This document shows, in pieces, positions 13,468-36,592 of a stretch of 64,000 bases of DNA. A program made the position numbers and the translations under genes. This DNA comes from a virus (lineage: Duplodnaviria; Caudoviricetes): the IMG/VR virus record IMGVR_UViG_3300038428_000448, positions 557 to 64,556 of that record. One strand, 5' to 3'. Under the pieces are notes generated by a model. It saw only the letters and a program-made list of their open reading frames with translations, did not search any database and was not told the DNA's origin. Numbering within the stretch: the first letter of the stretch is position 1; each line of letters begins with the position of its first letter.

Positions 13468-13501
13468 AAAAGAAAAGAGCCGTATTTCTACGGCTCTTTT
13501 T
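13468..13501 (-). terminator. Intrinsic terminator after major capsid gene
   Basis: Minus strand AAAAGAGCCGTA-GAAA-TACGGCTCTTTT-CTTTT: perfect stem, GNRA loop, U-tract. Confidence 0.9.
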
Positions 13502-13525
13502 GAATTAATAATTATCCTGTTCAGA

Positions 13526-22344: not shown

Positions 22345-23568
22345 TTACATGAAAAATTTATTTTCCAATGGAACGGAAAGAACTTCATTATTCATTAAAC
22401 AAATTCGTTTTACCCTTACGTCAGCAATAGCGCCTCCTAATGACAGTGATTCCTTGTGATAACCTTCATACAATTTATGATAAAGTTCATTTACTTTTTC
22501 ATAATTTACACTCTTTGGAAGCGTGGTCGTTTTGTAAGCTTCATCCAATTTCTTTTGCGTGGATTCTGCAAATTCCATGACCTGCTCATAAGACCATGCA
22601 CCGTTTTTGACGGCCAAGATTTCTTCACGGTCAGGACGCTTGACAACAACCTTGTGGTCATTCAAGATTTCCAAACCCATTCGCATCAATCTGACAAGGT
22701 GTGAAGCATGTTTGGTATCATAACCGGATTTGACTTCCAATTCATGTCTTGCCGGATTCCTATTCTTCTTCCAATTAAGCCAAGAATTGTAAGCTTCCAT
22801 TTCCTTTTTGTAAAGTCTTTCCCTTTGCAGAATATCAACAATTTCTTCCTTCAAGTTGTATTCCTTGGACAAACGTTCAATGACACCGGCTTCATACATT
22901 TGAGGCCAATTACCTTCATTAACATCAACCTGTGAAACATTTTCAACGAGTTCCCAAATGGTTGATTTTAATTCATCGCGTTCCATTTCACTCAACGGAA
23001 ATTGTGAAAGATTCCAGCGTTCAACTTCGGACTTGATTAAGCCAAAGATATCGTTCATTTGCTTTGGACGTTCAGCCGGCAGACCAAAATCTTCTCTTTT
23101 TGGTTGCTGAATTTCACCACGAACAATCCATTTTCTATGTCGTTCAATTTTTTTGGCTTGTGCATACGCATAACCGGCGAAGGTAAACTTTGCCTTGGAT
23201 GATAGAAATAAATCTCTGTTCTCCATAAGAGCATCCATAGGAGAATGAAAAACAAAGTGGTCGGTTGGGTCAGTCCACAATAATTCAATGATGTTTGGAT
23301 TGACATTAGCGGCTAAAACCATGAACTTTTTCAAGGAATAAAGTGTGGATTCAAACTTAGGATTCTTTGGATTTTTTAAATGTGCCAAAAGTTCCTCAAT
23401 TGCAGGATTATTCTCCGCCTGCTCAAATCGGTGAAAAAGATTATTTTCCACTTCCTTTGGCGGAATAACAATACCCTTAACATCCACGTCTGATAACTCA
23501 TTGTTCAGGCCATAAGCTTGTGAACCGTGAAGGGTTATATAGATTGTATTTGGGACAAGCCACTTCAT
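22345..23568 (-). CDS. Pol-beta-superfamily nucleotidyltransferase (Nuc-transf/RlaP/YcgL-like)
   Basis: HGSQAYGL....SDVDVKG catalytic motif, NPNIIELLW, YDTKHASHLVRL. Confidence 0.88.
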   Translation of the reverse strand: MKWLVPNTIYITLHGSQAYGLNNELSDVDVKGIVIPPKEVENNLFHRFEQAENNPAIEELLAHLKNPKNPKFESTLYSLKKFMVLAANVNPNIIELLWTDPTDHFVFHSPMDALMENRDLFLSSKAKFTFAGYAYAQAKKIERHRKWIVRGEIQQPKREDFGLPAERPKQMNDIFGLIKSEVERWNLSQFPLSEMERDELKSTIWELVENVSQVDVNEGNWPQMYEAGVIERLSKEYNLKEEIVDILQRERLYKKEMEAYNSWLNWKKNRNPARHELEVKSGYDTKHASHLVRLMRMGLEILNDHKVVVKRPDREEILAVKNGAWSYEQVMEFAESTQKKLDEAYKTTTLPKSVNYEKVNELYHKLYEGYHKESLSLGGAIADVRVKRICLMNNEVLSVPLENKFFM

Positions 23569-23574
23569 GAAGAA

Positions 23575-23603
23575 AGTATATCAGAATGGGCGTAAAATGT
23601 CAA
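23575..23603 (-). promoter_or_regulatory. sigma70-type promoter, probably leaderless
   Basis: TTGACA-17 nt-TATACT, ending 6 nt before the ATG of the nucleotidyltransferase. Confidence 0.85.
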
Positions 23604-23607
23604 GCGT

Positions 23608-23952
23608 TCACAAAATATTATCTTGTAGTTCTTTTTTATGACCTTTTAAAAGACGAATTTTTGCTTTTTGTTTCCATTGGTCTGCTTGTAATTGCCATAA
23701 TAATTGAAGTTCATAATCAGATGCATTCCAATAATCATCAAGTATTCTGATTCGCCTTTTCAATCTATGCAATACCAATTTTTCATCAACATATTTACCC
23801 GTAATAAATCTACAATATTCACAACCACACTCTTTTCGCCAACATTGATGTGTATGGCGATTGCGCAAAATAGAAAACAAACGTTCAACTGTGTCACCAA
23901 AGCGAGCGTCTGCTTCCTTTTGAACACGGTGAAGTATTTCTTTAGGAGTCAC
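23608..23952 (-). CDS. Hypothetical Cys-containing protein (likely GTG start at 23952)
   Basis: N-terminus TPKEILHRVQKEADARFGDTVERL is paralogous to the upstream gene. Confidence 0.65.
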   Translation of the reverse strand: MTPKEILHRVQKEADARFGDTVERLFSILRNRHTHQCWRKECGCEYCRFITGKYVDEKLVLHRLKRRIRILDDYWNASDYELQLLWQLQADQWKQKAKIRLLKGHKKELQDNIL

Positions 23953-24142
23953 GGCAATTCTCACAAACTTCAATTAATTGACCTTTATAGTGTTGAAAAT
24001 ACAAACCATCACAATAACATCGCCTAACACAATTTTTTAGTTTTTGTTCATATTCCAAAAGAAAAAGAAGACGCTCGATGGTTTCACCAAAACGAGCGTC
24101 TGCTTCTTTTTGAACCCGATTATGTATTTGCTGGGGCGTCAT
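23942..24142 (-). CDS. Small Cys-containing paralog (likely start 24142)
   Basis: MTPQQIHNRVQKEADARFGETIERL; CxxxCxC and CxxC. Confidence 0.6.
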   Translation of the reverse strand: MTPQQIHNRVQKEADARFGETIERLLFLLEYEQKLKNCVRRCYCDGLYFQHYKGQLIEVCENCRDS

Positions 24143-24521
24143 CGGTCTTGGCTTCTGCCGGTTGGCCACCACCCTTTACCAATTCATACAATTTATCCCA
24201 CACGCCCTTTTCTGTAGCATTAGTGACTACAGTTTCAATTTTGGCAAGCTTCTCTTCCAATTGTTTTTTTGCCTTGAATGCTTTTTCAGAAAATGTTTCA
24301 GCTTTGGTTCCATCCGCCGCAATAGCTACTTGGTCGGGCTTGGAAGCCTTTCGCAAATCACGAAAAGTATCTTCCGATAGTTTGATTGCGGAGGCAAGAG
24401 CATCAGCTCTCTTGGTTACTTCTGCAGTAACCAATTTGTCCACAACCGCCGTTATTACTTTCTCAGAACCGAGCTTTTCAACTTGTTCTGCCACTGCTAT
24501 GTTTATTGATTTTGGTGTCAT
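24120..24521 (-). CDS. Helical hypothetical protein (start corrected to 24521)
   Basis: The ORF-track TTG start is the -35 box; the ATG lies 10 nt after the -10 box. Confidence 0.7.
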   Translation of the reverse strand: MTPKSINIAVAEQVEKLGSEKVITAVVDKLVTAEVTKRADALASAIKLSEDTFRDLRKASKPDQVAIAADGTKAETFSEKAFKAKKQLEEKLAKIETVVTNATEKGVWDKLYELVKGGGQPAEAKTDDAPANT

Positions 24522-24531
24522 AAGTGGAAAA

Positions 24532-24560
24532 AGGATACCACACCTTATTACAAAAGTCAA
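24532..24560 (-). promoter_or_regulatory. sigma70-type promoter
   Basis: TTGACT-17 nt-TATCCT with TG just upstream of -10. Confidence 0.7.
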
Positions 24561-24563
24561 TTA

Positions 24564-25562
24564 TTAAAGCGAACCGGCATTCCCCGTATGATATTGCTGC
24601 TCAATCCATTTGTAAGTAATGGCTAAACCTTTGTTTAATGACGTGTGTGGTTCCCAACCAAATACCTTCTTTATAAATGTATTGTCAGAATTCCGGCCAG
24701 CAACACCTTTGGGTGCAGTAAGGTCATAATGGCGATTAAGTTTTACACCTGCAATTTTTTCAATTTTCGAGAGTAATTCATTGACAGAAACAAGTTCGCT
24801 GGAACCAAGGTTTATCGGTGTAGCAATCAATTTGTCACAATGCATAATCATGTCAATACCTTTCACACAATCACTGATATACATAAAGCTTCGGGTAGCC
24901 GTGCCATCACCCCAAATAGTGATGTTCATATCCTTTTTATCAATAGCTTCAATGACTTTGCGGCATAATGCTGCAGGTGCCTTTTCACGGCCTCCATTCC
25001 AAGTACCATTCGGTCCATAAACATTATGGAAACGGGCCATAAACGTCTTCATACCACGTTCATGCCAATATTCCTGACAAACCATTTCTGAAAATAACTT
25101 TTCCCAACCGTAACCTCGCTCGGCCATTGCTGGATAAGCATCAGACTCTTTCAATGCTTGAACTTTGGGGTCTTGTTGTAGTAAAGTATTATATGCACAT
25201 GCAGAACTTGAAAAGAAATAACGATTTGCTCCTGCTTTATAGGCGGCATCAATCATATACATATTAATAAGAACCGAACGCATGCATTCCACACGAAACC
25301 GTTCTATAAATCCCATACCGCCCATATCGGCCGCAAGTTGATAAACTTCAACCGCACCTTCACAAACACGTTTGCAATTTTCCTCACTACTTACATCAAA
25401 ACAAAGATTGGTCACACCGGGAACCCGAAGACACCATTCGTAAAGAGGTTTCTTATCCACTGCTCGAATGTTGTTAAAACCTCTTTTTTTAAAATATAGA
25501 GCCAAATTCCCACCTATAAACCCACCTGCACCGGTGATAACAATTAAATCATTTTTTTTCAT
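24564..25562 (-). CDS. NAD-dependent epimerase, GDP-mannose 3,5-epimerase-like
   Basis: TGAGGFIG, LAADMGGMGFI, SSSACAY, YGWEK, GGREKAPAALCRK. Confidence 0.92.
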   Translation of the reverse strand: MKKNDLIVITGAGGFIGGNLALYFKKRGFNNIRAVDKKPLYEWCLRVPGVTNLCFDVSSEENCKRVCEGAVEVYQLAADMGGMGFIERFRVECMRSVLINMYMIDAAYKAGANRYFFSSSACAYNTLLQQDPKVQALKESDAYPAMAERGYGWEKLFSEMVCQEYWHERGMKTFMARFHNVYGPNGTWNGGREKAPAALCRKVIEAIDKKDMNITIWGDGTATRSFMYISDCVKGIDMIMHCDKLIATPINLGSSELVSVNELLSKIEKIAGVKLNRHYDLTAPKGVAGRNSDNTFIKKVFGWEPHTSLNKGLAITYKWIEQQYHTGNAGSL

Positions 25563-25570
25563 AGTTAAAA

Positions 25571-26095
25571 TTATTTTGATAAATTTTCAAACGGCTTCTC
25601 ACAAAGCAAATCTACAAACACCATGATTTCCTTGTAAGTTTTATCATCCTTGGAAAAATTCCAACGTTTGGTGGCTACTTCATCGATATAATCCTTCAAC
25701 GAAGAACCAAATTCTTCTGAACGAGCTTTCCAATCACATACCATTTCCGCCACATAAACTCTTGGCATTTTTTGTATTTCACCCCAATATTCCGGGTGGT
25801 GTGGATTGATTTTGCGATGATGATTGACTGCCATTTTCATCTTCAATTTGGCAGATTCTTCTTTGGTAGGGGCGCCGGGAGCCATGTTATCCCATTCAAT
25901 TCCATGAAATTTTGATGCGTCATGAACAAAACCGTTGGCTATCAGGTCGTGGCCCAATTCTATTTCACCGTTCATTATTAATTTTTCACCAAGAAGAAGG
26001 CAATTGTCTTCAACATTGCGCATATGCCGGGTAATACCACGAATTTTCTCCATAGTTTTTTCGGCTTCCTTGTGGATTCTCTCGGTCTTTTTCAT
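25571..26095 (-). CDS. DUF5662-like HD-fold protein
   Basis: HDASKF, HH...N.HHPEYW, EMVCDW motifs. Confidence 0.8.
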   Translation of the reverse strand: MKKTERIHKEAEKTMEKIRGITRHMRNVEDNCLLLGEKLIMNGEIELGHDLIANGFVHDASKFHGIEWDNMAPGAPTKEESAKLKMKMAVNHHRKINPHHPEYWGEIQKMPRVYVAEMVCDWKARSEEFGSSLKDYIDEVATKRWNFSKDDKTYKEIMVFVDLLCEKPFENLSK

Positions 26096-26099
26096 ATCT

Positions 26100-26615
26100 T
26101 TATTTCCAAAATTCTCTTATTTTCATCAACAATTTACCAAGGTTATTTTGCCCACCCAACTTGATATCCACACCCCAAAAGGTATCTTTCCAATGATTTG
26201 TTTCTTCCAAAAACTTGTTGCCTGTATCGAGAAGTTTTTGACGCAATTCCTTGTTTCTGTAAAATTTATCAAAAAGTATGATAGACATTACCTCATATCT
26301 TCTACCATCCCATTCCTCTTTTGAGGAATCCATCAATGGATGTTTCTTCCATTCCTTTTTTGATTGATTGGAAGAGCAAGCTTGAAGATGATGGCGAAAA
26401 TCAGAATCTATCTTTGCAGCTTGATAAGCATTTTCCGAAGACGGATATAACAATCCTTCAAAATATACAGGACACCCATGAAAATTTGACAGCCACCGAT
26501 AATCACCAAAGAAACCTTTAACATTGTCGTTATCATGAATGGCATATAATTTCCAATCGCCAAATTTGTAGAAATTTCCCACAACAGGAGTTTCGTTAAA
26601 CATTAATTCTGACAT
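26100..26615 (-). CDS. NADAR (YbiA-like) family protein
   Basis: WLSNF, YPSSENAYQAAK, LLDTG...LEE...W.DTFWG, GQNNLGKLLM.IR. Confidence 0.93.
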   Translation of the reverse strand: MSELMFNETPVVGNFYKFGDWKLYAIHDNDNVKGFFGDYRWLSNFHGCPVYFEGLLYPSSENAYQAAKIDSDFRHHLQACSSNQSKKEWKKHPLMDSSKEEWDGRRYEVMSIILFDKFYRNKELRQKLLDTGNKFLEETNHWKDTFWGVDIKLGGQNNLGKLLMKIREFWK

Positions 26616-27303: not shown

Positions 27304-27651
27304 TTATTCCCATATTCCTTGCCCACCTTCTTCTTCTATCATGTCTCTAGCCGTTTCCATAGCTTGCTGAATGGCAGAATCATATTTACCGTCTTTTAAC
27401 AAAACCTCTATTGCATCCAATCCATTAGCAAAAGTCGCAGTATCAGCCAAATCGGCTGATGATAATCCAAGTCTTCGTTCCAAAACCGTATCTATCAATT
27501 TTACGGCAGTTTTTCTATCACCAAGTTCTTTTCGCCATTTTTCAAGTGTAGCAATGCTTTTTGGAGATAATGCTTCATTCACTCTTTTTTCAAACAATTT
27601 AGCTTGTTTTACAATTTCTGAAATTATCAATCTTAATTGTGATTTTTTCAT
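27304..27651 (-). CDS. Hypothetical protein with leader MKKSQLRLIISEIVKQ...VNE (start corrected to 27651)
   Basis: ATG 4 nt after upstream stop; leader resembles those at 13431 and 31885. Confidence 0.7.
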   Translation of the reverse strand: MKKSQLRLIISEIVKQAKLFEKRVNEALSPKSIATLEKWRKELGDRKTAVKLIDTVLERRLGLSSADLADTATFANGLDAIEVLLKDGKYDSAIQQAMETARDMIEEEGGQGIWE

Positions 27652-27655
27652 AATT

Positions 27656-27910
27656 TTAAAATATTTTATCCCAACAAGAATTACAAATCCCACTTTTGAG
27701 GATTTCTCGTTCGTCAGGCTTTAGATATGGAAAGGCATTTTGAATCAACGTACCTGCACGCCATCTTTCATAATCACGTTTTTCAACTGTCACCGAATTC
27801 TCTTTTTTACAAAGAGGACATATTCTCTTAATTGTTATTTTTGAAGAAACATCTATCTCTTTTACAAGTTTGAATTGATTTCCATTAACATTTTCAAATA
27901 GTTTCTTCAT
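27656..27910 (-). CDS. Zinc-ribbon-like small protein with N-terminal leader
   Basis: CPLC...LIQNAFPYL...ERE...SGICNSCWD after MKKLFENVNGNQFKLVKE. Confidence 0.7.
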   Translation of the reverse strand: MKKLFENVNGNQFKLVKEIDVSSKITIKRICPLCKKENSVTVEKRDYERWRAGTLIQNAFPYLKPDEREILKSGICNSCWDKIF

Positions 27911-27911
27911 T

Positions 27912-28541
27912 TTATCCGATTTCAGTCAAGATGTCCCTAATAATGGTTTCAATTCTTTCCCATTTTTGATTGATGGGATTTTGAACCATGTTTTTTACAC
28001 CTTCCTGAAGATTGCCTGATGGAAACATGAAGGCGCCCCTTGTGCTTGGATTGGATACAAAGTCGAAAGCAATGAGTTCAAAATCATCTTGAACCACATC
28101 TGCTTCTTCGTTCATACTCTTATTGACTGTTCCCAATCCACGACTAGAAATACCCAATCGAATATTAGCTTTGAACAATTCTCTTAAAATATTTCCATTT
28201 GGGGTGGGTAAAACTTCCACCGTTCCTATAAGGTCGTCGCCTTCCCAATGCATTTCCACAACATTATGGGAAACGTTTTGAAGATTGACCACGGAAGATT
28301 CCGGGTGGTCCAATTCACCCAAAGCTCGTCTTTCTTTTATGAAATTTTCCTCATATTTTTTAGATTCACGAAAGAGAGTGTCCTTGGGATACATTCTACC
28401 GTTTTGGTTCTTTATACCAGCACGCTGTAAAATACCCTTGACAACCAATCTTCTTCCATCAGAACGAATGGCTTCCTCAAAGAGATTGTCTTTGACAAAC
28501 TCGAAAGTTATACAATCTACCAATAATTGTTTAGTGTTCAT
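27912..28541 (-). CDS. gp21: Prohead core protease (T4 gp21-like)
   Basis: KNQNGRMYP, ALGELDHP, VSH, TPNGNIL, GISSRGLG, DFVSNPS. Confidence 0.95.
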   Translation of the reverse strand: MNTKQLLVDCITFEFVKDNLFEEAIRSDGRRLVVKGILQRAGIKNQNGRMYPKDTLFRESKKYEENFIKERRALGELDHPESSVVNLQNVSHNVVEMHWEGDDLIGTVEVLPTPNGNILRELFKANIRLGISSRGLGTVNKSMNEEADVVQDDFELIAFDFVSNPSTRGAFMFPSGNLQEGVKNMVQNPINQKWERIETIIRDILTEIG

Positions 28542-28545
28542 AATT

Positions 28546-29658
28546 TTAAACGTTCCATCCTACTTCTTTGATATATTCCAAAAGATAATATCTACCATTT
28601 TTAACTATATCAATGGAACCCTTTGAATGTTTTCCATAAAGTGTTTGTTGTCTCATGGAATCAATCGCAGCCAATCGGACATCTCTACCATCCACATTAC
28701 TTATCATGTGGCTTTCAGGAATTGACAACTGACAATGAATTGTAGTAGAATTTTTCCCTTCTGACAACATGGTTGACAAATCTTTCATATAAGGGAAGAA
28801 ATTAACCTTGTTATTTTCATTCTTTACATTATCGGACATAAATTCTACAAGGAACTTATTCAAGTCGTTTTGAACCTGTTCAGCCACAGGCAAACCCTTC
28901 TTTTTCTTTTTTCGCGGGTCTTCGGGTTCCGGTTCTGCTGGAGCAGGTTCCGCTGGTGCCGGAGCTTGCTTTGGAACTTGCTGTGGAGCCATTGGTGCCG
29001 GTTCCTGAGTATTGACTTGCGGAACAGCCTTGGGTGGTTGTTCTTCCGGTGTTGGCGGCGCACCACCCGGTGGAGCAACATTCGGTGATTCTTCCTTGCC
29101 GCCTGCTGTTGGTGGTTGACCTTCCGGTTCAACTTCGCCAGCGGCTGGTTTCTCTTCACTGCCCGGAGCCGGTTCAGAACCTTCACTTTCAATCTTGATA
29201 TTGATACCCGGAGTCAAAAAATATTTTTTGTCATTTTGGTCGGTGGCTATGACCACATAATCCTTATACCAAAATTCCACGCTGATTTTCTTGACGTTTT
29301 CTATGGTGTAATCGGTCTTTGGTTGTCCATAGCCCCGCGATGAATTTGCCACAATGGTTTTATTGAGCAACCTCTTGTTCATTTTGTCCAAGAGAATTTT
29401 CTTAGCTTCTGCTTCAGCCTTGTTTTTTTTATCCTCAAACGCCCTAAAGTCGCGGGTAAAATCATATTCCGATGGATCTTCAGGTTCAGGTGAAGTTTCA
29501 GGTGCAGGAGTTTCAGGTGCTGGTGTTTCCGGTAATCCAGCACTCATGCCTTGTGGGGGCGCAACCGGAGCAGGCACGGGAGCCGCCGGGCTCATTGCTG
29601 GCGGCTGTGGAGCCTGTTCAGTTAAATTCAACAAGTTTCTCAATTTTAATCTTTTCAT
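28546..29658 (-). CDS. Pro-rich two-domain head-associated protein with leader MKRLKLRNLLNLTE
   Basis: 370 aa, PETPA repeats, located between portal and protease genes. Confidence 0.7.
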   Translation of the reverse strand: MKRLKLRNLLNLTEQAPQPPAMSPAAPVPAPVAPPQGMSAGLPETPAPETPAPETSPEPEDPSEYDFTRDFRAFEDKKNKAEAEAKKILLDKMNKRLLNKTIVANSSRGYGQPKTDYTIENVKKISVEFWYKDYVVIATDQNDKKYFLTPGINIKIESEGSEPAPGSEEKPAAGEVEPEGQPPTAGGKEESPNVAPPGGAPPTPEEQPPKAVPQVNTQEPAPMAPQQVPKQAPAPAEPAPAEPEPEDPRKKKKKGLPVAEQVQNDLNKFLVEFMSDNVKNENNKVNFFPYMKDLSTMLSEGKNSTTIHCQLSIPESHMISNVDGRDVRLAAIDSMRQQTLYGKHSKGSIDIVKNGRYYLLEYIKEVGWNV

Positions 29659-29659
29659 A

Positions 29660-31885
29660 TTACTTTAGTATGTTCTCTTCCTCAGATATGGATTTTGCTA
29701 CTTTAAACCCCAATTTCTTTGTTACATCCAATGCTCTTTTGCTACCATCTTTATTCTTTGTAAAGGCAAACGGCGTAGCATATCCTGCTACGGCACCTGT
29801 TCCTGTCATTTCTTGAATATTCGTATCTTCTTGAAAATTTCTAACAAACATATTGGTTGGTACAAATCGTTCTTTGCTTTCATCCCATACTTCAAAAGGT
29901 CTGTTTACACCATGAAATCTTACAAATTTTCTAACCCAATCTGGTCCTAAATAGACTTCAAACACAATATCATCAGGACCATTTTTATATGCTATTTGAA
30001 TATTTTCCACGTTAGCTTTAAAAAACTTATAAGATGCATTCTTTACCCTTTTAATTATCTGATAATCAAGGCCTCTTTTATTTGCTTCATCCAATGTATA
30101 ATCAAAATATGATTTCAAATATTTCATAAGTTCGGGCATTGTACCAACGCTTCTATCAGAAATCACTTTAATAAGGTCAGCTCTAGCCCTTTTTATATCA
30201 TCGTCTTTAATGGAAGGATTCTTTATTTTAATCATGCCCAATAAACGGTCTATGTTAGCCTCCGTTACAGGCAAATTTTTCCATCTACTTTTTAAACTAG
30301 TGCGAAATAAATTTCCAAGTGCATTGTAAATCATGGAAGCAAGAGTAGCGGTCATAAATATTCCTGTTTCTATGGTATTTCTTATATTAACTTCTTCCAA
30401 TTTTTTTGAGTTCAAATATTGTTGTAAATCCTCTATGGTTGTTATTTTATTCGCATCTAATGCACTGAGCACTTCTTGTTTAAAATAATAGAGTTCTTCA
30501 TCTTTCAGTTCCGGATGACGCATTTTTACGGCTTTAAATATAGAATCGATGACCGCCACCGTTAATTTTTTTCTTCTCCATTGTTTGTCAGTAGCTAAAT
30601 TATCAATTAAACTTCGCAAGATTTTGTAAACCGCAAGACCTCCTGCCGCAGAAACTAAGGCTGCACCAAAACCAGCAATTTCACCGATATTTCGTCCACG
30701 ACGCTTTGTGGAGCGCAAATCTTTCAATGTTACTGGTTTTCCTTTTCTTCCCTTATCATCACATTTCTTACACACCCTTGCCAATGGTTTACCTCTAGCA
30801 TCCAATTTAACATATGAAGGCAATCCGCTTCCACAAGGACATGGTTGCCTATGAACATGTGTGTCTTTATCATACATTGGTACTGATTCAGAAAGACCGG
30901 AAATACTCTTTAATTGAAGGGCACTTTCCATATCATCCACATATCTTCCATCAGGACCAATTTTTTCTCTTACTTTCTTTTTTTTAAAAGCAAATGGAGA
31001 AGAATACGCTCCGGCTGCACCTGAACTTGTTTGTTCATCTTGCTCATCCGGTTCAATCGGCTCATCTACATCGGCCTGAGTGTAATGTTTTAGAATTTCA
31101 GGTCGATAATGTGATAGTTTCTCTTTTCTACATCTATCACATACTCTTACCAAAGGAATACCTTGTCCATCCAATGCCCATTCACTTGGCAATCCACTAC
31201 CACAATCACATTTCCTATCCTCTTCTTTAAGGGCTTTATCCTTTAAAAATGGAAATGGAAGTTGTAATCTGCTTGCCGGAAATGATGCCACATGACCGTC
31301 TTCAAATTTCACGGACAACCAGCCTTTCGGTAGTGGTTTATAGGCTCCGGGCTCATTGGGAATTAACCCACCGGCAGTTTGTTTAAATTCAGTTGGAACT
31401 ATGACACCAATTTTTCCACTATCCACACCTGAACCATCGGCAACTTGAACTGTATCTCCTTCTTTTTTGGAAGCTTCTTCAACATTGACCGCTTTCATTA
31501 CTGCTTCTCGTCCATCATCAAATTCGTGGTCATTTTTAACACCACCAACAGGCTGGCCTTCACCCATTACACCTTTTAAAAATGTCCTAACATCTAATTG
31601 ATCCCTATTAATACGACCATTTGGTGCCACATTAGCCCATCTATTACCACCTGCTACTTCTATACCATAAGGTAACTCCAAAACTATATTAACCCGGTTA
31701 TTACCGGCATCTGTGTATTTTACAGGTTTAAATTTTCTCTGCATCAAAGCCGATACAACCTGTCTTTGGTTTGGTGTTAAGCGAGTGGTAGCCGCAGCCG
31801 CATCAACATTGTCACCGGCCATTTCTTTCAAAATTGCCTCTTTAACAATATTTCTGACAAATGACTTAAGCTGCGTCCTTTTCAT
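29660..31885 (-). CDS. Modular head-associated protein, putative protease-processed polyprotein
   Basis: 741 aa; leader, KOW/SH3-like module, two CxCGSG..CxxC modules, two GAxxxYxxPFAF motifs, two similar helical modules. Confidence 0.75.
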   Translation of the reverse strand: MKRTQLKSFVRNIVKEAILKEMAGDNVDAAAATTRLTPNQRQVVSALMQRKFKPVKYTDAGNNRVNIVLELPYGIEVAGGNRWANVAPNGRINRDQLDVRTFLKGVMGEGQPVGGVKNDHEFDDGREAVMKAVNVEEASKKEGDTVQVADGSGVDSGKIGVIVPTEFKQTAGGLIPNEPGAYKPLPKGWLSVKFEDGHVASFPASRLQLPFPFLKDKALKEEDRKCDCGSGLPSEWALDGQGIPLVRVCDRCRKEKLSHYRPEILKHYTQADVDEPIEPDEQDEQTSSGAAGAYSSPFAFKKKKVREKIGPDGRYVDDMESALQLKSISGLSESVPMYDKDTHVHRQPCPCGSGLPSYVKLDARGKPLARVCKKCDDKGRKGKPVTLKDLRSTKRRGRNIGEIAGFGAALVSAAGGLAVYKILRSLIDNLATDKQWRRKKLTVAVIDSIFKAVKMRHPELKDEELYYFKQEVLSALDANKITTIEDLQQYLNSKKLEEVNIRNTIETGIFMTATLASMIYNALGNLFRTSLKSRWKNLPVTEANIDRLLGMIKIKNPSIKDDDIKRARADLIKVISDRSVGTMPELMKYLKSYFDYTLDEANKRGLDYQIIKRVKNASYKFFKANVENIQIAYKNGPDDIVFEVYLGPDWVRKFVRFHGVNRPFEVWDESKERFVPTNMFVRNFQEDTNIQEMTGTGAVAGYATPFAFTKNKDGSKRALDVTKKLGFKVAKSISEEENILK

Positions 31886-32771
31886 CTTTTTTTACTTCCG
31901 CCTGTTTTTTAATTTCCTTTAATAATTCATAAGACAATAAAACAACCATTATTTGATTGTCTTTGACTATTTTATTTGGAACAGGTTTTACTTTATCCAA
32001 TTGACGAACAACTTCATTGATTTTAATTTTTATTACCTCATTGTCTCCAATTTTAGATGATAATTCACTCAATTGTTTCTTTACATTATTGACTTCTTTT
32101 ATAACATATTCGCCTAATGAATTGGTATTGGAAATATTATTGATGTATTCACGAAGAACGTTCTTTTGATTTTCATCCAAATCCTTATATTTTTTATTCA
32201 TACCTTCAACCAAGATACGATAAGACAAAAGACGAATATCCTCGTTCTGCTGCGCATAAAACTTGAGAATATCTTCCTCTTCACCCAGCCTCTTTGGTCT
32301 ATCAACAATATTTTCAATAATACATGTTTTTGCTTGATAAACTTCCTTTGCATCAAACTTTAAGTCTTTGGAAGATGCATCCTCGAAGAGTTTGAATATA
32401 GAGGCCAAATTCCTATAATTTTTGATACTTGCTTTTAAAAAATCATCAATAGGATAAAGATTCTTAATTTCTTTAATTAATTCGTATTTTTCTCTTGCTA
32501 ATTTGGAATTACTAAGCTTTTTACGTTGTTCTATGATTACAGACAAAAATCGGTCTGCATGTTGTTCGTCTTTTATCTTTTCAGATAGGAGAAAATTATA
32601 AAGACGCCATTCCCTTCCTAACTCAGTGTTTTCTTTAAAGTATTTGAAAAGCAAATCTTTAGCTTCTGACCCATCTTTGCCGGCAATAATGTCTGCGGTT
32701 ACTTGTCGTGTCAACAATTCAAACAAAATACCTGTATTTTTAAACTTCGAATGGCGCATTTTCTTTGGCAT
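31866..32771 (-). CDS. Helical head-cluster protein downstream of portal
   Basis: 301 aa, HSKFKNTGILFELL N-terminus, own late-type motif. Confidence 0.75.
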   Translation of the reverse strand: MPKKMRHSKFKNTGILFELLTRQVTADIIAGKDGSEAKDLLFKYFKENTELGREWRLYNFLLSEKIKDEQHADRFLSVIIEQRKKLSNSKLAREKYELIKEIKNLYPIDDFLKASIKNYRNLASIFKLFEDASSKDLKFDAKEVYQAKTCIIENIVDRPKRLGEEEDILKFYAQQNEDIRLLSYRILVEGMNKKYKDLDENQKNVLREYINNISNTNSLGEYVIKEVNNVKKQLSELSSKIGDNEVIKIKINEVVRQLDKVKPVPNKIVKDNQIMVVLLSYELLKEIKKQAEVKKDEKDAA

Positions 32772-32833: not shown

Positions 32834-34918
32834 TTATTCACCAATTATGTTGCTCTCGTCGAGAATCGATTTACTTCCTGTCGTTCTAGATTCTTTGATC
32901 AACTCCTTTTTTTCCGTTTTTGATTTCAAATAAGAACTGAGACTTTGAAGCAAGTTACCCCTTTCAAGAGTCTCAAGACTCAATGGAGAACCTTTGGCCC
33001 ATTTTGGAGTCAAAGAGTCACTACCCTTTCTATGTTTTTCATTATTTTCCAAATTACCCAATGGGTCCTCTCCAAAAGGATGTTGTCTTCGAGCATCATG
33101 TTCACCTTCTTGTGATGGTCGTTCATAATCCTCAGCATGTTCACCGTGTTCCTCTTCTAAACTTCCGGTATTTTCATTAACCATTTGCTTCCATTTAGCA
33201 TGATTGGCATCTCCTTGAATTTTTGCTTCCTGCAATGGTGGTAATCCCCCACCACCAACCGGGCCGCCAGCGCCCAATTCAGGCAATGCTCCACCCGGAC
33301 CACCCAAATCAGGTAATCCACCACCCGGACCACCACCGCCCAATTCAGGCAATTCGCCACCCGGCGGTGCACCGCCCTCAGCGTTTGGATTAATCTTTTG
33401 AAATGGTTTTGCAGGGTCATTACCCTCTTCTTCAATGGATTTGAATCTCCACATTTGTTTGGAATCTTCAACAATTTCATCAAGAAGTTGGTCGGAATCG
33501 TCTGCGGATAAGTTAAACACATTCTTATAAATCCATTTCTTGGAGAAAAGTTTATTTTCCATCATGTTTCTAGCCAGCTCGGTTTTGTTGCCCCAAACTT
33601 CAATTTTTTCCTTTTCAAAAATGGTGGAAGGATTGGTAAGTTCCAACTTGAAATTAACCAAACTTTCATCACGATAGCCTTGGGAATACAGATGAACAAT
33701 GGCAATTTTTTCAAGTTCAGATATAATAACCCTCTGAATACGCTGAATAGTTCTAGCAAATCTGACATCTTCCGATGCTAAGGTAGCCTTGCCTGAAAGT
33801 TCTTCTTCATAACCCAAGAAAGCTTTTGGAATCTTCAACGCAGCCATCAATTTATTGCGAAGATATTCAATATCATCAATACCTGTCCATTCAATACCAC
33901 TCAAGGTTTCGATGGATGTTCCGCTATCACTACCACGAACAGGCAAAACATAATCTTCTGTCATGTTTTGAAGATTAAATCTAAGGTTATAATCTCCGGT
34001 TTGTGGGTCAACATACGGAATTCTCTTTAATTTGGTAATTTGCTTTTCTATGAATGAATCAATATCTTGTGGGGGAATATTTCCAACATCCAATTTGAAA
34101 ATACGTCTTTCCGGTGCGCGCATGATACGATTGATTAACATAGCGTCTTCCATCAAGGACAACTGTTTCCAAACACGTCTTGCACCTTCAATCATGGCCT
34201 TACCGTAAGGTAAAAAGTTGGAATCCGAAAGTAATCTAAAGTGAGCACATTCAAAGAATTCCAAAGTTTCAACTTGTGATGTGTCGGTTGGTCGGATTTG
34301 GAATTTTACGTAATTCTTGTTAAGCGGGTCTGTATTTTCAAGTCGTTCGACATTGTATGCAGAAATAGGTTCAATTTGATAAACGCCATATTCAGGTGAT
34401 ACATAAAGGCGCATGTAAAAGTCACCATATTTAGCCATGTTTCTTGTCCAAGACCAAAGATTATGTTCAATGTTTAAAACATCATAAAAAAGGTTGGTAA
34501 GAATACCTTTAATATTATCATCGTCCGCATGGACAACCAAAACCTTTCCCAATTCATTCACCGTCAAGGATTCGTCTGCGTAAATATCCAAAGCAGATGC
34601 AATAATCGGATCCATATCCATTGTGTCATAGTCTCTAAAAAGGTCTATACGAGCCGCTTGGTACGCTAATGAAAAATCTCTAGTGTAAGCATTATATGAC
34701 GTGGAACGAACGCGATTGAAACGGTCACGCAAACTGTTTCTATCCGTCGCGTACATTAAATCGCTGGTATCTTTTACTTTAAGTTTCTTACCACCAACGT
34801 TACGAACTACTACGCCCGAAGAAAACAATTTCTTCAAACGCGCAAACAACGATTTTTGCTTAATATCTATTTCATCGTTATCTACTCTTACTTCTGGTCT
34901 TATAGGTGAATCAGGCAT
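32834..34918 (-). CDS. gp20: Portal protein (T4 gp20-like) with Gly/Pro-rich C-terminal extension
   Basis: QLSLMEDAMLINRIMRAPERRIFKLDVGN, EDYVLPVRG, DDIEYLRNKL.AALKIPK. Confidence 0.95.
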   Translation of the reverse strand: MPDSPIRPEVRVDNDEIDIKQKSLFARLKKLFSSGVVVRNVGGKKLKVKDTSDLMYATDRNSLRDRFNRVRSTSYNAYTRDFSLAYQAARIDLFRDYDTMDMDPIIASALDIYADESLTVNELGKVLVVHADDDNIKGILTNLFYDVLNIEHNLWSWTRNMAKYGDFYMRLYVSPEYGVYQIEPISAYNVERLENTDPLNKNYVKFQIRPTDTSQVETLEFFECAHFRLLSDSNFLPYGKAMIEGARRVWKQLSLMEDAMLINRIMRAPERRIFKLDVGNIPPQDIDSFIEKQITKLKRIPYVDPQTGDYNLRFNLQNMTEDYVLPVRGSDSGTSIETLSGIEWTGIDDIEYLRNKLMAALKIPKAFLGYEEELSGKATLASEDVRFARTIQRIQRVIISELEKIAIVHLYSQGYRDESLVNFKLELTNPSTIFEKEKIEVWGNKTELARNMMENKLFSKKWIYKNVFNLSADDSDQLLDEIVEDSKQMWRFKSIEEEGNDPAKPFQKINPNAEGGAPPGGELPELGGGGPGGGLPDLGGPGGALPELGAGGPVGGGGLPPLQEAKIQGDANHAKWKQMVNENTGSLEEEHGEHAEDYERPSQEGEHDARRQHPFGEDPLGNLENNEKHRKGSDSLTPKWAKGSPLSLETLERGNLLQSLSSYLKSKTEKKELIKESRTTGSKSILDESNIIGE

Positions 34919-34978: not shown

Positions 34979-36592
34979 TTATCGTAACAACCACGTCAAA
35001 CTTTCCACATCGCCCGGTTTACTGCCGAATTTCATTTGCCATTGGTCACGACCTGTGGTTTGAGTCCTTCTAGTGGGATAAATTGGAGTATTATTTTCAC
35101 TTTTGCCCACATGTATTCGGTCCAGCATGGTTTTTGTTAAAACCATTTTTTCGCTGCGAAGTCTTAATGCTGTGTCCCTTACCCACAAGCCGATACCCAA
35201 GGCGATAACCAAATCATCGTTATAATTTTGGGCTGCTTGCGCTTTTCCGTTTTCCCAAATAAATGTTTTCAATTCGTTAATCAATCGGATGGAATGAACA
35301 ATGACCAATTTTTCCCTGAAATACTCCTCTATTTTTGAAATTAACAACGGTCTTGTTTTAATGGTAGTGGAAAATCCCGGTAATAACTTGGCTTCATCGC
35401 GGTTATATCGGTTTGATACATTATGATACACATCAGCAATTTTTGGGTCATTAGTGTTTGAATAGAAAGTATTTTTATATTGACGGTCAATAATTTGTTG
35501 AAGAACGGCCCAACCAATATTTTCACGTTCCACCACCAACAACGCATCGTTGTATTCTGTCGCCAAATTTACCAACATATCACCATATTCCCTTGTACCC
35601 AATTGGTCTTGAAATTCTGCAACCTGCTCCAATGTCTCTATATCAAACACATGTGCTGCAGAAAGGTCTGAACCATCACCTCGGGCCACGTCTGCGCATA
35701 CAATATAATCTTGACCTTGTTTTGGATATTCAAATATCCATAAAGCTTCTCCCCGCCTTTGCTCTTTTCTATCCATGACCATTTTTGGATTCTCTTCATA
35801 CCATTTTAGAGTCATCAAATCCACCACGTTCGTTCCTGATGATAAGAAGTCACAATCACATTCCTGACTAGCACCCTTGGCTCCCAATTGTTTTGTTTGT
35901 TCTTCACGCCAACGTTGGTCACGTTCAGGGTGTAAATGCCAAGGCAACTTGATGAGTTTAAAATCATTTTTTTTCTTTTCAGCATTTACCCACATTTTAT
36001 GAAACCAATTACCAACACCGTTTGGAGTTGATAGAATAATAGCCTTACCCCCGGTGGAGAGAGTTAAAAAGGCAGAAGTCCATATTGTTTCTGCTTCCTC
36101 TATAAAAGCAGCTTCATCAACAATCAACAAACTCAAAGCTTTGGAACGGCCTGCATCTTTTGCGGATGACGTTGCGGAGATTTGGGAGCCGTTTTTAAAT
36201 CTCAAAGACATGTGATTGTTGGTCGTTTCTTTTTCCTTCAACCATGATGGCAGGTGTTCATTAGCAAAGCGGACTTTTGTAATGATTTCTTTTGAAACTT
36301 CCTGCTTGATGGAAATAATTAATACATTCTTATCACTATTGAATAAGGACAACCAAAGGGAATAGGCTGCAACCAAAGTAGTTATACCCAATTGTCTTGA
36401 TTTGAGTATGAGGGTAAATCTATTTTGAAAATCTTTCAGCGTGTCTTCCTGAAATGGATACAAATCGAACGGTATTGTACCTTTGTTTGGGTGTTGAATT
36501 TTGACATATTTTCGCATAAAATACACGGGGTCTTCCATGCATTTTTTCGTTTCTTCTCTTATTACATCCCGTAGAGTAGGTTGATTTGGCAT
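34979..36592 (-). CDS. gp17: Terminase large subunit (T4 gp17-like)
   Basis: LYPFQ, KSRQLGITT (Walker A), LLIVDEAAF (Walker B), STPNG, ADVARG, DDLVIA. Confidence 0.96.
   Translation of the reverse strand: MPNQPTLRDVIREETKKCMEDPVYFMRKYVKIQHPNKGTIPFDLYPFQEDTLKDFQNRFTLILKSRQLGITTLVAAYSLWLSLFNSDKNVLIISIKQEVSKEIITKVRFANEHLPSWLKEKETTNNHMSLRFKNGSQISATSSAKDAGRSKALSLLIVDEAAFIEEAETIWTSAFLTLSTGGKAIILSTPNGVGNWFHKMWVNAEKKKNDFKLIKLPWHLHPERDQRWREEQTKQLGAKGASQECDCDFLSSGTNVVDLMTLKWYEENPKMVMDRKEQRRGEALWIFEYPKQGQDYIVCADVARGDGSDLSAAHVFDIETLEQVAEFQDQLGTREYGDMLVNLATEYNDALLVVERENIGWAVLQQIIDRQYKNTFYSNTNDPKIADVYHNVSNRYNRDEAKLLPGFSTTIKTRPLLISKIEEYFREKLVIVHSIRLINELKTFIWENGKAQAAQNYNDDLVIALGIGLWVRDTALRLRSEKMVLTKTMLDRIHVGKSENNTPIYPTRRTQTTGRDQWQMKFGSKPGDVESLTWLLR

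Follow-up and report, generated by a model that had tools for sequence, protein, structure and literature searches.

The window analysed here, a 64,000-nucleotide stretch of the genome of an uncultured, T4-related tailed phage (IMG/VR record IMGVR_UViG_3300038428_000448), contains a block of head genes in the order TerL, T4-type portal, ORF301, ORF741, ORF370, and S77 (T4 gp21-type) prohead protease. For comparison, the T4 order is 20-67-68-21-22-23. The candidate polyprotein gene, ORF741, is the second gene upstream of the protease gene, and thereby occupies the slot between portal and protease that holds gp67 and gp68 in T4. The genes considered here are:

13526..15367, minus strand: major capsid protein (gp23 type; Pfam Gp23 8.8e-71; PHROG 138)
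27304..27651, minus strand: ORF115, leader-bearing head-module gene with mosaic relatives
27656..27910, minus strand: ORF84, leader-bearing head-module gene with mosaic relatives
27912..28541, minus strand: S77 prohead protease, 209 aa, the proposed processing enzyme
28546..29658, minus strand: ORF370, Pro/Glu/Ala-rich, with leader MKRLKLRNLLNLTE; directly downstream of ORF741
29660..31885, minus strand: ORF741, candidate polyprotein of 741 aa; ATG start, frame open throughout under table 11
31866..32771, minus strand: ORF301, conserved upstream neighbour, overlapping the ORF741 start by its last 20 bases
32834..34918, minus strand: T4-type portal protein (Pfam Portal_T4 1.5e-66)

The initial annotation placed a 741-aa reading frame two genes upstream of a gp21-like protease. 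The frame is intact, and the protease is confirmed by matches to Pfam Peptidase_S77 (PF03420; 1.3e-25), PHROG 207 (head maturation protease; 5.1e-52), and the solved T4 gp21 chain 5jbl (1.1e-14). Residues His79 and Ser132/Ser133, which we take to be catalytic, are invariant across 19 relatives; the deposited T4 chain has Ala at the matching positions. The major capsid protein carries a candidate maturation site near residue 60, between ..QLIEE and ATATGTS, modelled on the T4 gp23 site between L-T-E65 and A66.

Neither ORF301 nor ORF370 matches a Pfam or PHROG family, and a PHROGs search of their homologues likewise gave no family. A promoter and terminator scan did no better than shuffled sequence (40 versus 34.5, and 5 versus 8.3).

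For the 741-aa protein itself, Pfam returns HEAT_EF3_N alone (E 0.005; 17.2 bits, below the cut-off of 32), and at a threshold of E 0.01 it gives no domain of known effector or peptidase type. The PHROGs search gave nothing, and the PDB sequence search nothing below E 0.34. With the full predicted model, Foldseek found no PDB row at E ≤0.001, and a wide VIA search gave Z ≤7.5 throughout, a level generic for helical bundles. (A BFVD row at 5.9e-4 was discarded: TM 0.11, rmsd 33.6.) The ESM Atlas gave no usable feature match, its structural rows all being below threshold.

Parts of ORF741 and their borders

ORF741 parses into 12 pieces. Between the leader and a C-terminal motif with its tail lie seven units that are folded or helical, and three short peptides. 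The "about ten cargo modules" first proposed thus become 12 pieces, not all of them cargo. From N- to C-terminus, these are:

31823..31885, minus strand: leader, residues 1-21 (MKRTQLKSFVRNIVKEAILKE), ending L-K-E21; predicted helix 3-22 (block pLDDT 90 and 81)
31559..31822, minus strand: module m1, residues 22-109, ending M-G-E109; alpha-beta-beta-beta-alpha unit, pI 10.0
31475..31558, minus strand: peptide A, residues 110-137 (GQPVGG..VMKAVNVEE), ending V-E-E137; acidic, pLDDT <50
31223..31474, minus strand: small beta-barrel module (KOW/SH3-like, predicted fold), residues 138-221, ending L-K-E221
31034..31222, minus strand: zinc module 1, residues 222-284 (CDCGSG..CDRC..YRPEIL..DVDEPIEPDEQDE284); pLDDT 85-97
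30965..31033, minus strand: peptide C1, residues 285-307 (QTSSGAAGAYSSPFAFKKKKVRE307); basic internal copy of the C motif, pLDDT <50
30887..30964, minus strand: peptide B, residues 308-333 (KIGPDGRYVDDMES..SGLSE333); acidic, 33 relatives by short BLAST
30680..30886, minus strand: zinc module 2, residues 334-402 (CPCGSG..CKKC), ending I-G-E402; Lys/Arg-rich tail, net charge +11
30392..30679, minus strand: helical module 1, residues 403-498, ending L-E-E498; Gly/Ala-rich hydrophobic start, pLDDT 91-97 over 421-490
30086..30391, minus strand: helical module 2, residues 499-600, ending L-D-E600; paralogue of 403-498
29810..30085, minus strand: module m11, residues 601-692, ending F-Q-E686 or I-Q-E692; one helix plus five strands
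29663..29809, minus strand: C-terminal conserved module, residues 693-741 (MTGTGAVAGYATPFAF, a Lys-rich stretch, ..KKLGFKVAKSISE735, and tail); motif in 95 of 193 relatives

Unit lengths are 22-102 residues, and most folded units are basic (pI 8.2-10). Module m1 is predicted with block pLDDT 94-96 over residues 31-110 (one block at 68); its best fold match, HicA3, falls below threshold (Z 5.3). It is present in 16 of 193 relatives, doubled in some. Module m11 (pLDDT 91-95 over 611-680; <50 at 601-604) occurs in 6 of 193, with VirB8-like and cystatin-like matches below threshold (Z ≤6.4). Folded alone, the barrel module gives six strands at pLDDT 74. All 50 rows of its VIA structure search are small barrels, all with Z <8, led by KOW6-7 of DSIF (Z 6.7, rmsd 2.0, 53 aligned) and NusG KOW (Z 6.5); the best Foldseek E is 1.7e-2. 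Helical module 1 has its 19-residue Kyte-Doolittle maximum of 1.50 at residue 405, and matches generic helical bundles (Z up to 7.5).

The CxCGSG...CxxC pattern is plain in both zinc modules, the second of which reaches pLDDT 80-84 over 351-380. Searching module by module for stand-alone homologs, as had been suggested, brought up 51 stand-alone zinc-module proteins of 59-131 aa, most of which terminate at ..DVDEPIEPE, the border of zinc module 1. Pfam SEC-C (PF02810) matches one stand-alone relative only, P0036, and weakly: the match covers 8 residues at E 0.024 and scores 15 bits, below the cut-off of 20.4. In a tblastn search of 50,697 phage records with the whole of ORF741, the zinc module alone was matched, in 3 Rhizobium phage records. 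A genome-contig search with a stand-alone zinc protein found 3 MAG contigs; head-gene context was absent around it in the one contig inspected.

The proposed border strings were all found: ILKE21, VMGE109, VEE137, ALKE221, QDE284, VRE307, LSE333, IGE402, LEE498, LDE600, and FQE686/IQE692. All were said to be hydrophobic-x-Glu, and all are except E284, which has Gln at P3. (The sequence after QDE284 had also been misread: it is Q285, then TSSG.) Since ORF741 holds 18 hydrophobic-x-Glu sites among its 47 Glu residues, the tripeptide by itself is weak evidence. The four S/A/G-x-E sites all lie away from the borders.

Position relative to the predicted structure is more telling. Of the 12 border Glu residues, 10 are inside an AlphaFold2 segment of pLDDT <50 or no more than 2 residues away from one, versus 0 of 7 for the other hydrophobic-x-Glu sites (binomial 1.65e-4; Fisher 7e-4); low pLDDT here may reflect a thin, mosaic alignment, and unit limits were themselves judged from pLDDT. 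The confident units are separate and lie within the Glu sites, and fold matches of the full model keep within unit limits. The exceptions are two long predicted helices that cross E498 and E600, with pLDDT falling there. The coincidence of Glu sites with module borders, put forward originally as the real evidence, is not chance: most borders fall in or beside low-pLDDT linkers, and relatives break exactly at the border sites.

Three module types were said to be duplicated, and each pair is significant by Smith-Waterman comparison with 500 shuffles: zinc, z 15.1; helical, z 13.8; and GAxGAY..PFAF, z 8.4. For each pair, the observed score was reached by 0 of 500 shuffles; two pairs of unrelated modules, run as controls, scored no better than chance. 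Plain self-BLAST of ORF741 returned the self-hit alone and did not show the duplications.

Relatives, leaders, and the joints

The C-terminal motif was used to fetch 80 syntenic IMG/VR loci, and a family member is present in all 80 loci kept, with complete forms of 163-747 aa. In the 78 loci holding an ORF301 homologue, the slot gene directly follows it in all 78, and overlaps it or lies within 5 nt in 70. A protease was identified in 62 loci, always ≤3 kb downstream, and ORF370 relatives are at the equivalent place in 23 of 80.

Family lengths range from 73 aa, through 163-348 aa, up to 632-747 aa. The shortest, from the cultured Flavobacterium phage immuto, corresponds to just the ORF741 leader plus the C-terminal motif, its C-terminal part matching residues 693-741. 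PHROGs holds no family for the 73-aa, 163-aa, 170-aa, and 178-aa relatives, nor for one 195-aa relative (L035). Searches among cultured phages found none with the polyprotein form, tblastn matches to the motif being limited to immuto phages and LR756508. (A motif copy in Mel-JY01 was spotted by eye. A search for virion-protein literature gave nothing on Mel-JY01 and, judging by titles and abstracts, none for immuto.)

Among 112 multi-element relatives there are 52 architectures. The initial annotation would have been contradicted by a fixed architecture; what is found instead is units gained, lost, duplicated, and reordered at the Glu sites. In the closest relative (L003, 71% identical) the order is hel-m11-hel versus hel-hel-m11 in ORF741, with breaks after ..KKLEE and ..LDE; P0003 likewise places helical module 2 after m11 rather than before it, and relative to P0003 that module is missing as a 102-aa block. 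Compared with L018, P0004, and P0006, the barrel module stands as an insertion of 82-84 aa.

These breakpoints were counted in 135 insertions of at least 20 aa with flanks at least 50% identical. Both ends lie ≤2 residues from a hydrophobic-x-Glu in 32 of the 135, versus 1.6 expected (20x chance); at least one end does so in 92, versus 31 expected, and in 121 at a tolerance of 4 residues. The signal is clear only with such well-conserved flanks, and unanchored versions are weak or noisy: HSPs end exactly on a hydrophobic-x-Glu Glu in 127 of 2002 cases (52.6 expected) and start at one in 130 of 3783 (89.5 expected), and among 1724 insertions defined loosely, both ends lie away from any site in 1139.

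The predicted unit borders are conserved Glu sites of the gp21 pattern: hydrophobic P3; free P2; and Glu, almost never Asp, at P1. At four motif-anchored joints, 219 of 229 positions have Glu at P1 and 2 have Asp; the patterns were written after sight of the sequences, and the counts are not independent, many rows coming from close relatives. P3 is one of L/V/I/M/F in 212 of the 229 (97/102, 27/39 before peptide B, 39/39, and 49/49), and P2 is free. The background frequency of hydrophobic-x-Glu in the family is 2.85% per residue and takes in one third of its Glu; acidic residues number 2426 Asp and 3195 Glu (43% Asp).

Peptide A, found in 29 relatives by short BLAST with a hydrophobic-x-Glu just before it, ends VN[VI]-x-E in 43 of 51 pattern matches (P1 Glu in 42 of 49 under a stricter pattern). 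All 39 pattern matches of peptide B have Glu directly before them, and 38 end in hydrophobic-x-Glu. In 100 of 102 C-motif copies, as in peptide C1, a Glu lies 10 residues ahead of the Tyr. It could be part of the motif for some other reason; 36 of the 102 copies are leader-proximal, in non-KKKK-type relatives, mostly from a near-identical group of 185-202 aa. P1' before the C motif is Met in 59 of 102 and Glu or Gln in 36, and Lys or varied at other joints; in ORF741, Met follows E21 and E692. Among the residues listed, Ser, Ala, or Gly seldom occupies P3: at most 2 of the 39 sites preceding peptide B have one, as does 1 of the 102 preceding motif C. A non-hydrophobic P3 is seen at 12 of those 39 peptide B sites and at E284.

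A leader of the type MK[KR]..L is common to ORF741, ORF370, and ORF115. (A fourth match to the pattern, in an epimerase, is unrelated.) Leaders like that of ORF741 also start its relatives and separate small genes of the 484-kb phage LR756508, in which leader-tagged small proteins are encoded as separate genes in the equivalent slot. The 82 loci examined contain 80 leader ORFs, of which 47 lie between portal and protease, 13 between the protease and capsid genes, and 1 ahead of the portal; 19 are unplaced. A separate leader gene of L016 shares 66% identity with a stretch inside polyprotein P0055. Some relatives also have internal leaders, so a role as N-terminal signal is not a necessary one.

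ORF115 and ORF84 are built, as far as their sequences tell, by the same rule as ORF741. ORF115 relatives of 284, 371, 401, and 421 aa have additional modules set between hydrophobic-x-Glu sites; a second, internal leader occurs in one of them; and L021 joins the N-terminal peptide of ORF84 to the core of ORF115.

Interpretation and known systems

Judged by sequence, ORF741 is the enlarged version of a conserved small head protein made of leader, motif, and basic tail. The ancestor would have been a clade-wide protein with an amphipathic N-terminal leader, the motif xTGTGAVAGYxTPFAF directly after a Glu, and a basic tail, its gene lying immediately downstream of portal and ORF301 and shortly ahead of the protease gene. 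In the ORF741 lineage, some 670 residues of extra units would have been inserted between leader and motif: the alpha/beta unit; the KOW/SH3-like barrel; two zinc, two helical, and one helix-plus-sheet unit; and three short conserved peptides.

We give somewhat better than even chances to a prohead-core polyprotein that is targeted to the capsid and cut by the head protease, probably into about a dozen pieces inside the capsid. The packaged, protease-cut polyprotein first proposed stands as regards its head-block context, autonomous units, gp21-pattern borders, and shuffling at the sites; from these we infer packaging, cleavage, and the fate of the pieces. The chain would be translated in one piece, and the leader, the C-terminal module, or both would carry it into the assembling prohead core. 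At shell closure the S77 protease would cut after Glu at about 11 joints (residues 21, 109, 137, 221, 284, 307, 333, 402, 498, 600, and 686/692). The folded, mostly basic units (pI 8.2-10) would remain with the DNA as internal proteins and may exit with it. The short peptides would serve assembly, then be lost or kept as internal peptides, like the fragments of T4 gp22, gp67, and gp68.

The idea of a pure cargo string may hold for the autonomous units, but does not for residues 110-137, 285-307, 308-333, and the motif at 693-708, short peptides kept in dozens of relatives. Because these peptides are conserved and the gene expanded from a small head protein, a core or scaffold role is as likely as cargo for part of ORF741. 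A bolder reading, which we hold tentatively and at less than even chances, makes the head-protease site a universal connector: any small protein flanked by hydrophobic-x-Glu between leader and C-terminal anchor would be loaded and released in the prohead; recombination at the joints would build changing cargo strings, giving a dsDNA phage a genuine polyprotein strategy; and peptides A, B, and GAVAGYxTPFAF would be functional released peptides rather than spacers. They might be protease or core regulators, docking elements, or DNA-bound internal peptides.

ORF741 might instead be cut yet act purely as core or scaffold, with all pieces expelled or degraded before DNA packaging and nothing kept or injected. 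The gp67/gp68 slot suits this proposal, as do the universally conserved parts, which are short peptides and the leader rather than folded units; 73 aa, moreover, suffice in immuto, and T4 core protein fragments are described as mostly leaving the head (PMC9026906). A scaffold, however, would be expected to have a fixed architecture, yet folded units differ between close relatives (the 52 architectures above) and are also found elsewhere as autonomous small proteins. Most are basic, as expected for DNA-associated internal proteins, and at 7-12 kDa they seem large for escape through shell pores. We consider this proposal unlikely, if credible.

It is doubtful, too, that ORF741 is an uncleaved or end-trimmed multidomain "polyvalent protein" whose Glu linkers are flexible acidic spacers tolerating recombination. 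Capsid-packaged multidomain proteins are common and need no processing, N4 vRNAP being packaged unprocessed (PMC5512222); SPN3US is reported to have 42 uncleaved head proteins (PMC10052503); and hydrophobic-x-Glu is frequent, as noted. Acidic spacers, however, would swap Asp and Glu, and P1 is all but invariably Glu despite the abundance of Asp. The pattern is positional (P1 and P3 fixed, P2 free) and identical at joints of unrelated units; peptides A, B, and C are site-bounded on both sides whatever their neighbours; and Pfam finds none of the effector or peptidase domains sought.

Use of the joints by something other than the S77 protease, namely internal translation starts or a host or second phage protease, is very improbable. 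Internal starts would fit the P1' Met at most C-motif sites and after E21 and E692, and T4 gene 21 has an annotated internal start. The non-Met P1' at the remaining C-motif sites and other joints, however, rules out initiation there, and Met693 has no clear Shine-Dalgarno sequence ahead of it. As to another protease, cutting after Glu with hydrophobic P3 is the known S77 rule (PMC9026906), and that enzyme is encoded two genes away. An assembly or gene-calling artefact joining separate genes is scarcely credible: the source is a single 64.6-kb metagenomic contig, but the frame is open, collinear relatives of 747, 650, 646, and 632 aa lie on independent contigs, and the ESM Atlas holds the identical sequence, letter for letter.

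If the polyprotein is cut at its joints, tailed phages also fill the capsid by a polyprotein route. The maturation protease would double as a releasing enzyme, and a three-residue site as a recombination-tolerant connector, explaining the fast diversification of head contents between close relatives. Dozens of small proteins of unknown fold would travel with the DNA, among them zinc modules, a KOW-like barrel, and hydrophobic-start units as candidate early-acting or DNA-organising factors. The GAVAGYxTPFAF peptide, without known function or family, is the most conserved element of the locus. There would also be a natural design rule, by which one gene yields several proteins loaded into the capsid. 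Our literature search found no paper describing such head-protease-jointed polyprotein strings.

In T4, as described in PMC9026906, PMC9958956, and PMC5694885, L/I-x-E is the site after which gp21 cuts; the enzyme breaks down gp22, gp67, and gp68 and removes leaders of 10-20 residues from internal proteins. This tag-plus-site logic is reported to load foreign proteins into T4 heads (PMC9026906). T4 IPI, IPII, IPIII, and Alt, with their capsid targeting sequence (CTS), resemble ORF741 in three ways: a short leader ending hydrophobic-x-Glu, common to otherwise unrelated head-module proteins; an S77 protease in the same block; and variable, mostly basic cargo behind a constant tag. These T4 proteins, however, are separate genes with one leader and one cut (Alt two), whereas ORF741 has up to a dozen units and a candidate site per joint. 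Its leader is about 21 residues rather than 10, and it has a conserved C-terminal module that they lack; the likeness is drawn at the level of leader, protease, and cargo pattern.

T4 gp67 and gp68, core proteins considered here along with the scaffold gp22, share with ORF741 the portal-protease slot. The small ancestral form (73 aa in immuto) compares with the 80 aa of gp67, and gp67 and gp68 likewise have multiple gp21-type sites and are cut into several fragments. They differ in having fixed lengths, no inserted folded domains, and no sequence similarity to the ORF741 family. (Homology was rejected by hhalign of the C-module alignment: probability 0.2% for gp68 and 0.1% for gp67.)

In the head and inner-body proteins of phiKZ, 201phi2-1, and SPN3US, cleavage by a gp21-related protease follows the Glu of a three-residue motif, and long propeptides are cut at several sites. 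Mature SPN3US gp47, an ejection protein, is described as starting with a transmembrane segment (PMC5694885); the helical modules at 403 and 499 likewise start hydrophobic. The phiKZ/SPN3US motif is given as S/A/G-x-E (PMC9026906), in contrast to L/V/I/M at P3 in the ORF741 family, and those genes each yield one mature protein, the rest being propeptide, whereas ORF741 strings several autonomous units together.

Polyvalent proteins (Iyer et al. 2017, PMC5512222), like ORF741, have many unrelated domains per chain and a portal/terminase neighbourhood. They are predicted to be packaged and delivered with the DNA, show extensive domain shuffling, and are likened by their authors to viral polyproteins (PMC5512222). 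They are defined, however, by known effector domains (ART, MuF, PBECR, lysozyme, MPTase, etc.), with embedded peptidases where released; Pfam finds neither in ORF741, whose units are of 22-102 residues and would be freed by the head maturation protease acting in trans on a uniform joint.

RNA virus polyproteins, as proposed for ORF741, are single products cut at defined junctions by a viral protease. For ORF741, in contrast, the protease is a separate gene product, cutting would occur in the closed procapsid, and the products would be accessory head contents rather than replication machinery. ORF741 would extend the T4 theme of capsid targeting and gp21 processing with a polyprotein form.

The head-gene block and its small relatives

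ORF741, an intact reading frame of 741 codons, comes from a single metagenomic contig of 64,556 bases that the window covers almost entirely. The genes around it, every one on the minus strand, make up a T4-type head block. Judged by the portal, Microcystis phage Mel-JY01 comes closest among named phages (53%), followed by Flavobacterium phage immuto (50%) and LR756508 (48%), a 484-kb uncultured phage.

Head block and intervening genes
34979..36592, minus: large terminase
32834..34918, minus: T4-type portal (Pfam Portal_T4, 1.5e-66)
31866..32771, minus: ORF301, between portal and ORF741
29660..31885, minus: ORF741, between ORF301 and ORF370
28546..29658, minus: ORF370, between ORF741 and the protease
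27912..28541, minus: S77 prohead protease (Pfam 1.3e-25; PHROG 207, 5.1e-52; T4 gp21 chain 5jbl, 1.1e-14), with an invariant ISSRG stretch
27304..27910, minus: ORF84 and ORF115, two small genes directly past the protease; ORF84 has a CxxC..CxxC end
22345..26615, minus: metabolic-looking genes, separating the protease block from the scaffold and capsid genes
15414..17024, minus: acidic scaffold-like ORF536, homologue of the protein that immuto and Mel-JY01 encode ahead of their capsid protein
13526..15367, minus: gp23-type capsid protein

The T4 gene order is 20-67-68-21-22-23; by comparison, therefore, ORF301, ORF741, and ORF370 hold the place of the gp67/gp68 core proteins. The metabolic-looking genes encode a nucleotidyltransferase (PHROG 388), an NAD-dependent epimerase/dehydratase, a DUF5662 protein, and a NADAR-domain protein. 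ORF536 carries a mid-chain Cys cluster (CKTCGKPASLCTC) and numerous hydrophobic-x-Glu sites. The capsid protein has 613 residues, against 536-542 in immuto and Mel-JY01, and its best Pfam stretch spans residues 312-603 only, which points to a lineage-specific insertion of considerable size in its first half. Elsewhere on the minus strand lie ORFs of 2833, 1651, and 857 aa (1963..10464, 55578..60533, and 61020..63593); Pfam assigns none of them to a family at E ≤0.001, and the largest matches no PHROG family either.

Searching 1.84 billion representatives with HMMER gave 467 matches with E no higher than 0.001, 113 of them no higher than 1e-10; the 150 matches listed run from 57 to 781 aa, and relatives carry different subsets of units. 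Scanning IMG/VR with the C-terminal motif matched 314 stretches, of which 164 encode a relative; 80 loci were kept. All 80 hold a family member, which directly follows the ORF301 homologue wherever there is one (78/78) and has a protease at most 3 kb downstream wherever one was found (62/62). Complete forms in these loci span 163-747 aa: most are 185-202, about 20 exceed 229, and eight reach 632-747. The immuto protein in this slot has just 73 residues, equivalent to the ORF741 leader joined to its C-terminal motif and tail, and the Mel-JY01 form has 178; no other cultured members were found. ORF741 is therefore an enlarged version of a small conserved head protein.

Conserved peptides and the joints

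Dozens of relatives share three short peptides that recur regardless of their neighbours: A (GQPVGG..VMKAVNVxE); B (K.G.DG[KR]Y.DDMES..L.E); and C (E|xTGTGAVAGYxTPFAF). Each is flanked by Glu sites; A and B are acidic and C basic, and KKKK-hydrophobic-x-E follows C in nine of the 45 copies called internal. Of all elements in the locus, TGTGAVAGYxTPFAF (29663..29809, minus strand; all members) is the most highly conserved, near-invariant in relatives that otherwise share nothing; it matches no Pfam or PHROG family and has no known function.

Joints, the hydrophobic-x-Glu sites between units, were counted in 194 proteins by anchoring on these motifs. With patterns written after the data had been viewed, and many rows from close relatives, P1 is Glu at 100/102 joints before C, 39/39 before B, 38/39 at the end of B, and 42/49 at the end of A. 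Asp occupies P1 only twice in all anchored joints, in a family whose acidic residues are 43% Asp. P2 is free, and P3 is L, V, I, M, or F at 97/102, 27/39, 39/39, and 49/49 of the same joints. The Glu before C may be part of that motif for another reason. PMC9026906 reports the rule of T4 gp21 as L/I-x-E, with Asp blocking processing; the joint pattern is the same.

We favour, a little above even chances, the reading in which ORF741 is a capsid-targeted putative polyprotein. The chain would be targeted to the capsid, and the S77 protease would cut it at some 11 joints. Assembly would be the task of the short peptides; the folded units would remain as internal proteins. It is rather unlikely that the chain is cut as proposed and yet is entirely disposable core material. 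Slightly less probable again is a chain without internal cuts, a reading disfavoured because P1 is strictly Glu. We consider it improbable that the joints are used by another protease or as internal translation starts: P1' is indeed Met at 59 of the 102 C sites, but another 36 have Glu or Gln there, and Met693 has no clear ribosome-binding site ahead of it. An artefact is hardly credible.

Folded units and their exchange

The border strings quoted in the initial annotation all occur in ORF741, that ending at QDE284 with its border off by one (Q285 separates QDE284 from TSSG). The three module duplications it proposed are real: Smith-Waterman scores lie 15.1, 13.8, and 8.4 SD above 500 shuffles, none of which reached the observed value for any of the three, and two control pairs gave chance-level scores.

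An AlphaFold2 model built from a 53-row alignment (mean pLDDT 71.3, pTM 0.31) has confident units at residues 1-22 (a helix), ~30-110, 221-278, 346-388, 415-500, ~505-600, 605-683, and 710-741, parted by segments with pLDDT <50. Because the alignment is thin and mosaic and the model comes without PAE, low pLDDT is not proof of disorder. Ten of 12 border Glu residues fall inside a low-pLDDT segment or at most 2 residues from one, versus none of seven other hydrophobic-x-Glu sites (binomial 1.65e-4, Fisher 7e-4). Of the two that do not, E21 closes the leader helix and E498 sits within a long predicted helix, with pLDDT declining there from 85 to 60. E600 is likewise crossed by a long predicted helix, but it adjoins a pLDDT dip and is counted among the ten.

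None of the units falls into a Pfam or PHROG family. Modelled alone, residues 138-221 form a small β barrel (pLDDT 74). KOW domains match best (Z 6.7, rmsd 2.0, 53 aligned), and all 50 rows are small barrels with Z <8, so the label "KOW/SH3-like" is plausible at the level of fold and goes no further. Unit m1 (22-109) is α-β-β-β-α, with HicA3 as best row (Z 5.3); m11 (601-692) packs a helix on a sheet, with VirB8-like and cystatin-like rows at Z 6.4 or lower. The two helical units match generic bundles. They open with a Gly/Ala-rich hydrophobic stretch straight past the Glu site (Kyte-Doolittle 1.50, 1.28), and in this resemble the mature SPN3US ejection protein gp47, which starts with a transmembrane segment according to PMC5694885. 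Folded units are mostly basic (pI 8.2-10); zinc module 1 is acidic (pI 4.6).

Stand-alone homologs were found for the zinc module: 51 proteins of 59-131 aa consist of it alone, most ending ..DVDEPIEPE as the module does in ORF741. This module (CxCGSG..C..C..YRPEIL.GYTQADVDEPIEPE) is a widespread free protein of ~65 aa, from an unnamed family, with an invariant acidic tail (P0022-P0149). In the one contig read for its genomic setting, an Acidobacteria MAG (L087, 3902..4171), it lies outside any head module, beside an ATPase-like gene. Elsewhere, residues 101-143 of a 195-aa slot protein (L016:7569-8153; ..EFIVLWYENGKLNEDKSYF..) match PHROG 7884 (4.3e-7), a 66-position family of unknown function; this unit is another free-standing small phage protein serving as a bead.

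Gain and loss of modules at Glu sites was borne out among relatives. In a strict set of 135 insertions, with 12-residue flanks at least 50% identical, 32 have both ends at most 2 residues from a site (1.6 expected), 60 have a single end there (29.6 expected), and 43 have no end there (103.8 expected); with the tolerance raised to 4 residues, only 14 have none. Tests without motif anchors are weaker than the anchored counts: among loosely called insertions, 1139 of 1724 have neither end near a site, and HSPs end exactly on such a Glu in 127/2002 cases (52.6 expected) and start there in 130/3783 (89.5 expected). The closest relative (L003; 747 aa, 71% identity) reads helical-m11-helical-C, against helical-helical-m11-C in the window, with breakpoints immediately past ..KKLEE and ..LDE. 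The L004 member is missing the barrel, one of the zinc modules, and one of the helical units, and carries additional m1-like units. Altogether, 112 relatives with at least two recognisable elements show 52 architectures.

Split genes and known systems

The slot in LR756508 is filled by five or more separate small genes; every one has a leader of its own (MK..E.KLR.II+E..E), and one carries the C motif. A leader gene 3' of the protease in L016 resembles an internal part of polyprotein P0055 (66% identity over 122 residues); P0038 and P0049 also contain internal leaders. The ORF115 and ORF84 families, beside the protease, follow the same building rule. Both families are mosaic, and relatives of 284-421 aa have added units between hydrophobic-x-Glu sites. 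The loci concerned are:
L003:8627-9927: mosaic
L004:10227-11492: mosaic, with a second leader mid-chain
L018:9903-11108: mosaic
L021:7070-7396: mosaic, the ORF84 N-terminal peptide MK(K)LFEN..G N.FKL fused to the ORF115 core

In L083 (LR756508.1 143000-160000) the portal ORF (2764..6924) has 1386 aa and matched the query in three pieces, and the protease ORF (13481..15205) runs to 574 aa, its S77 halves widely separated; intein-like inserts seem to interrupt both. The L017 portal (1039 aa) may be likewise interrupted.

In the abstracts and passages covered, full-text searches on prohead proteases, internal proteins, and capsid targeting turned up no account of a natural leader-tagged polyprotein in a tailed phage. 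Judged by sequence and defining domains, ORF741 belongs to none of three known systems: homology to gp67/gp68 was rejected (hhalign probability <1%); the S/A/G-x-E motif of the phiKZ type is rare at the family's anchored joints; and a Pfam search of ORF741 revealed neither an effector nor a peptidase domain, as polyvalent proteins have. ORF741 is predicted to work like the T4 system of capsid targeting and gp21; to have multi-site cutting in common with phiKZ and SPN3US; and, if packaged as predicted, to share with polyvalent proteins the idea of many domains in one packaged chain.
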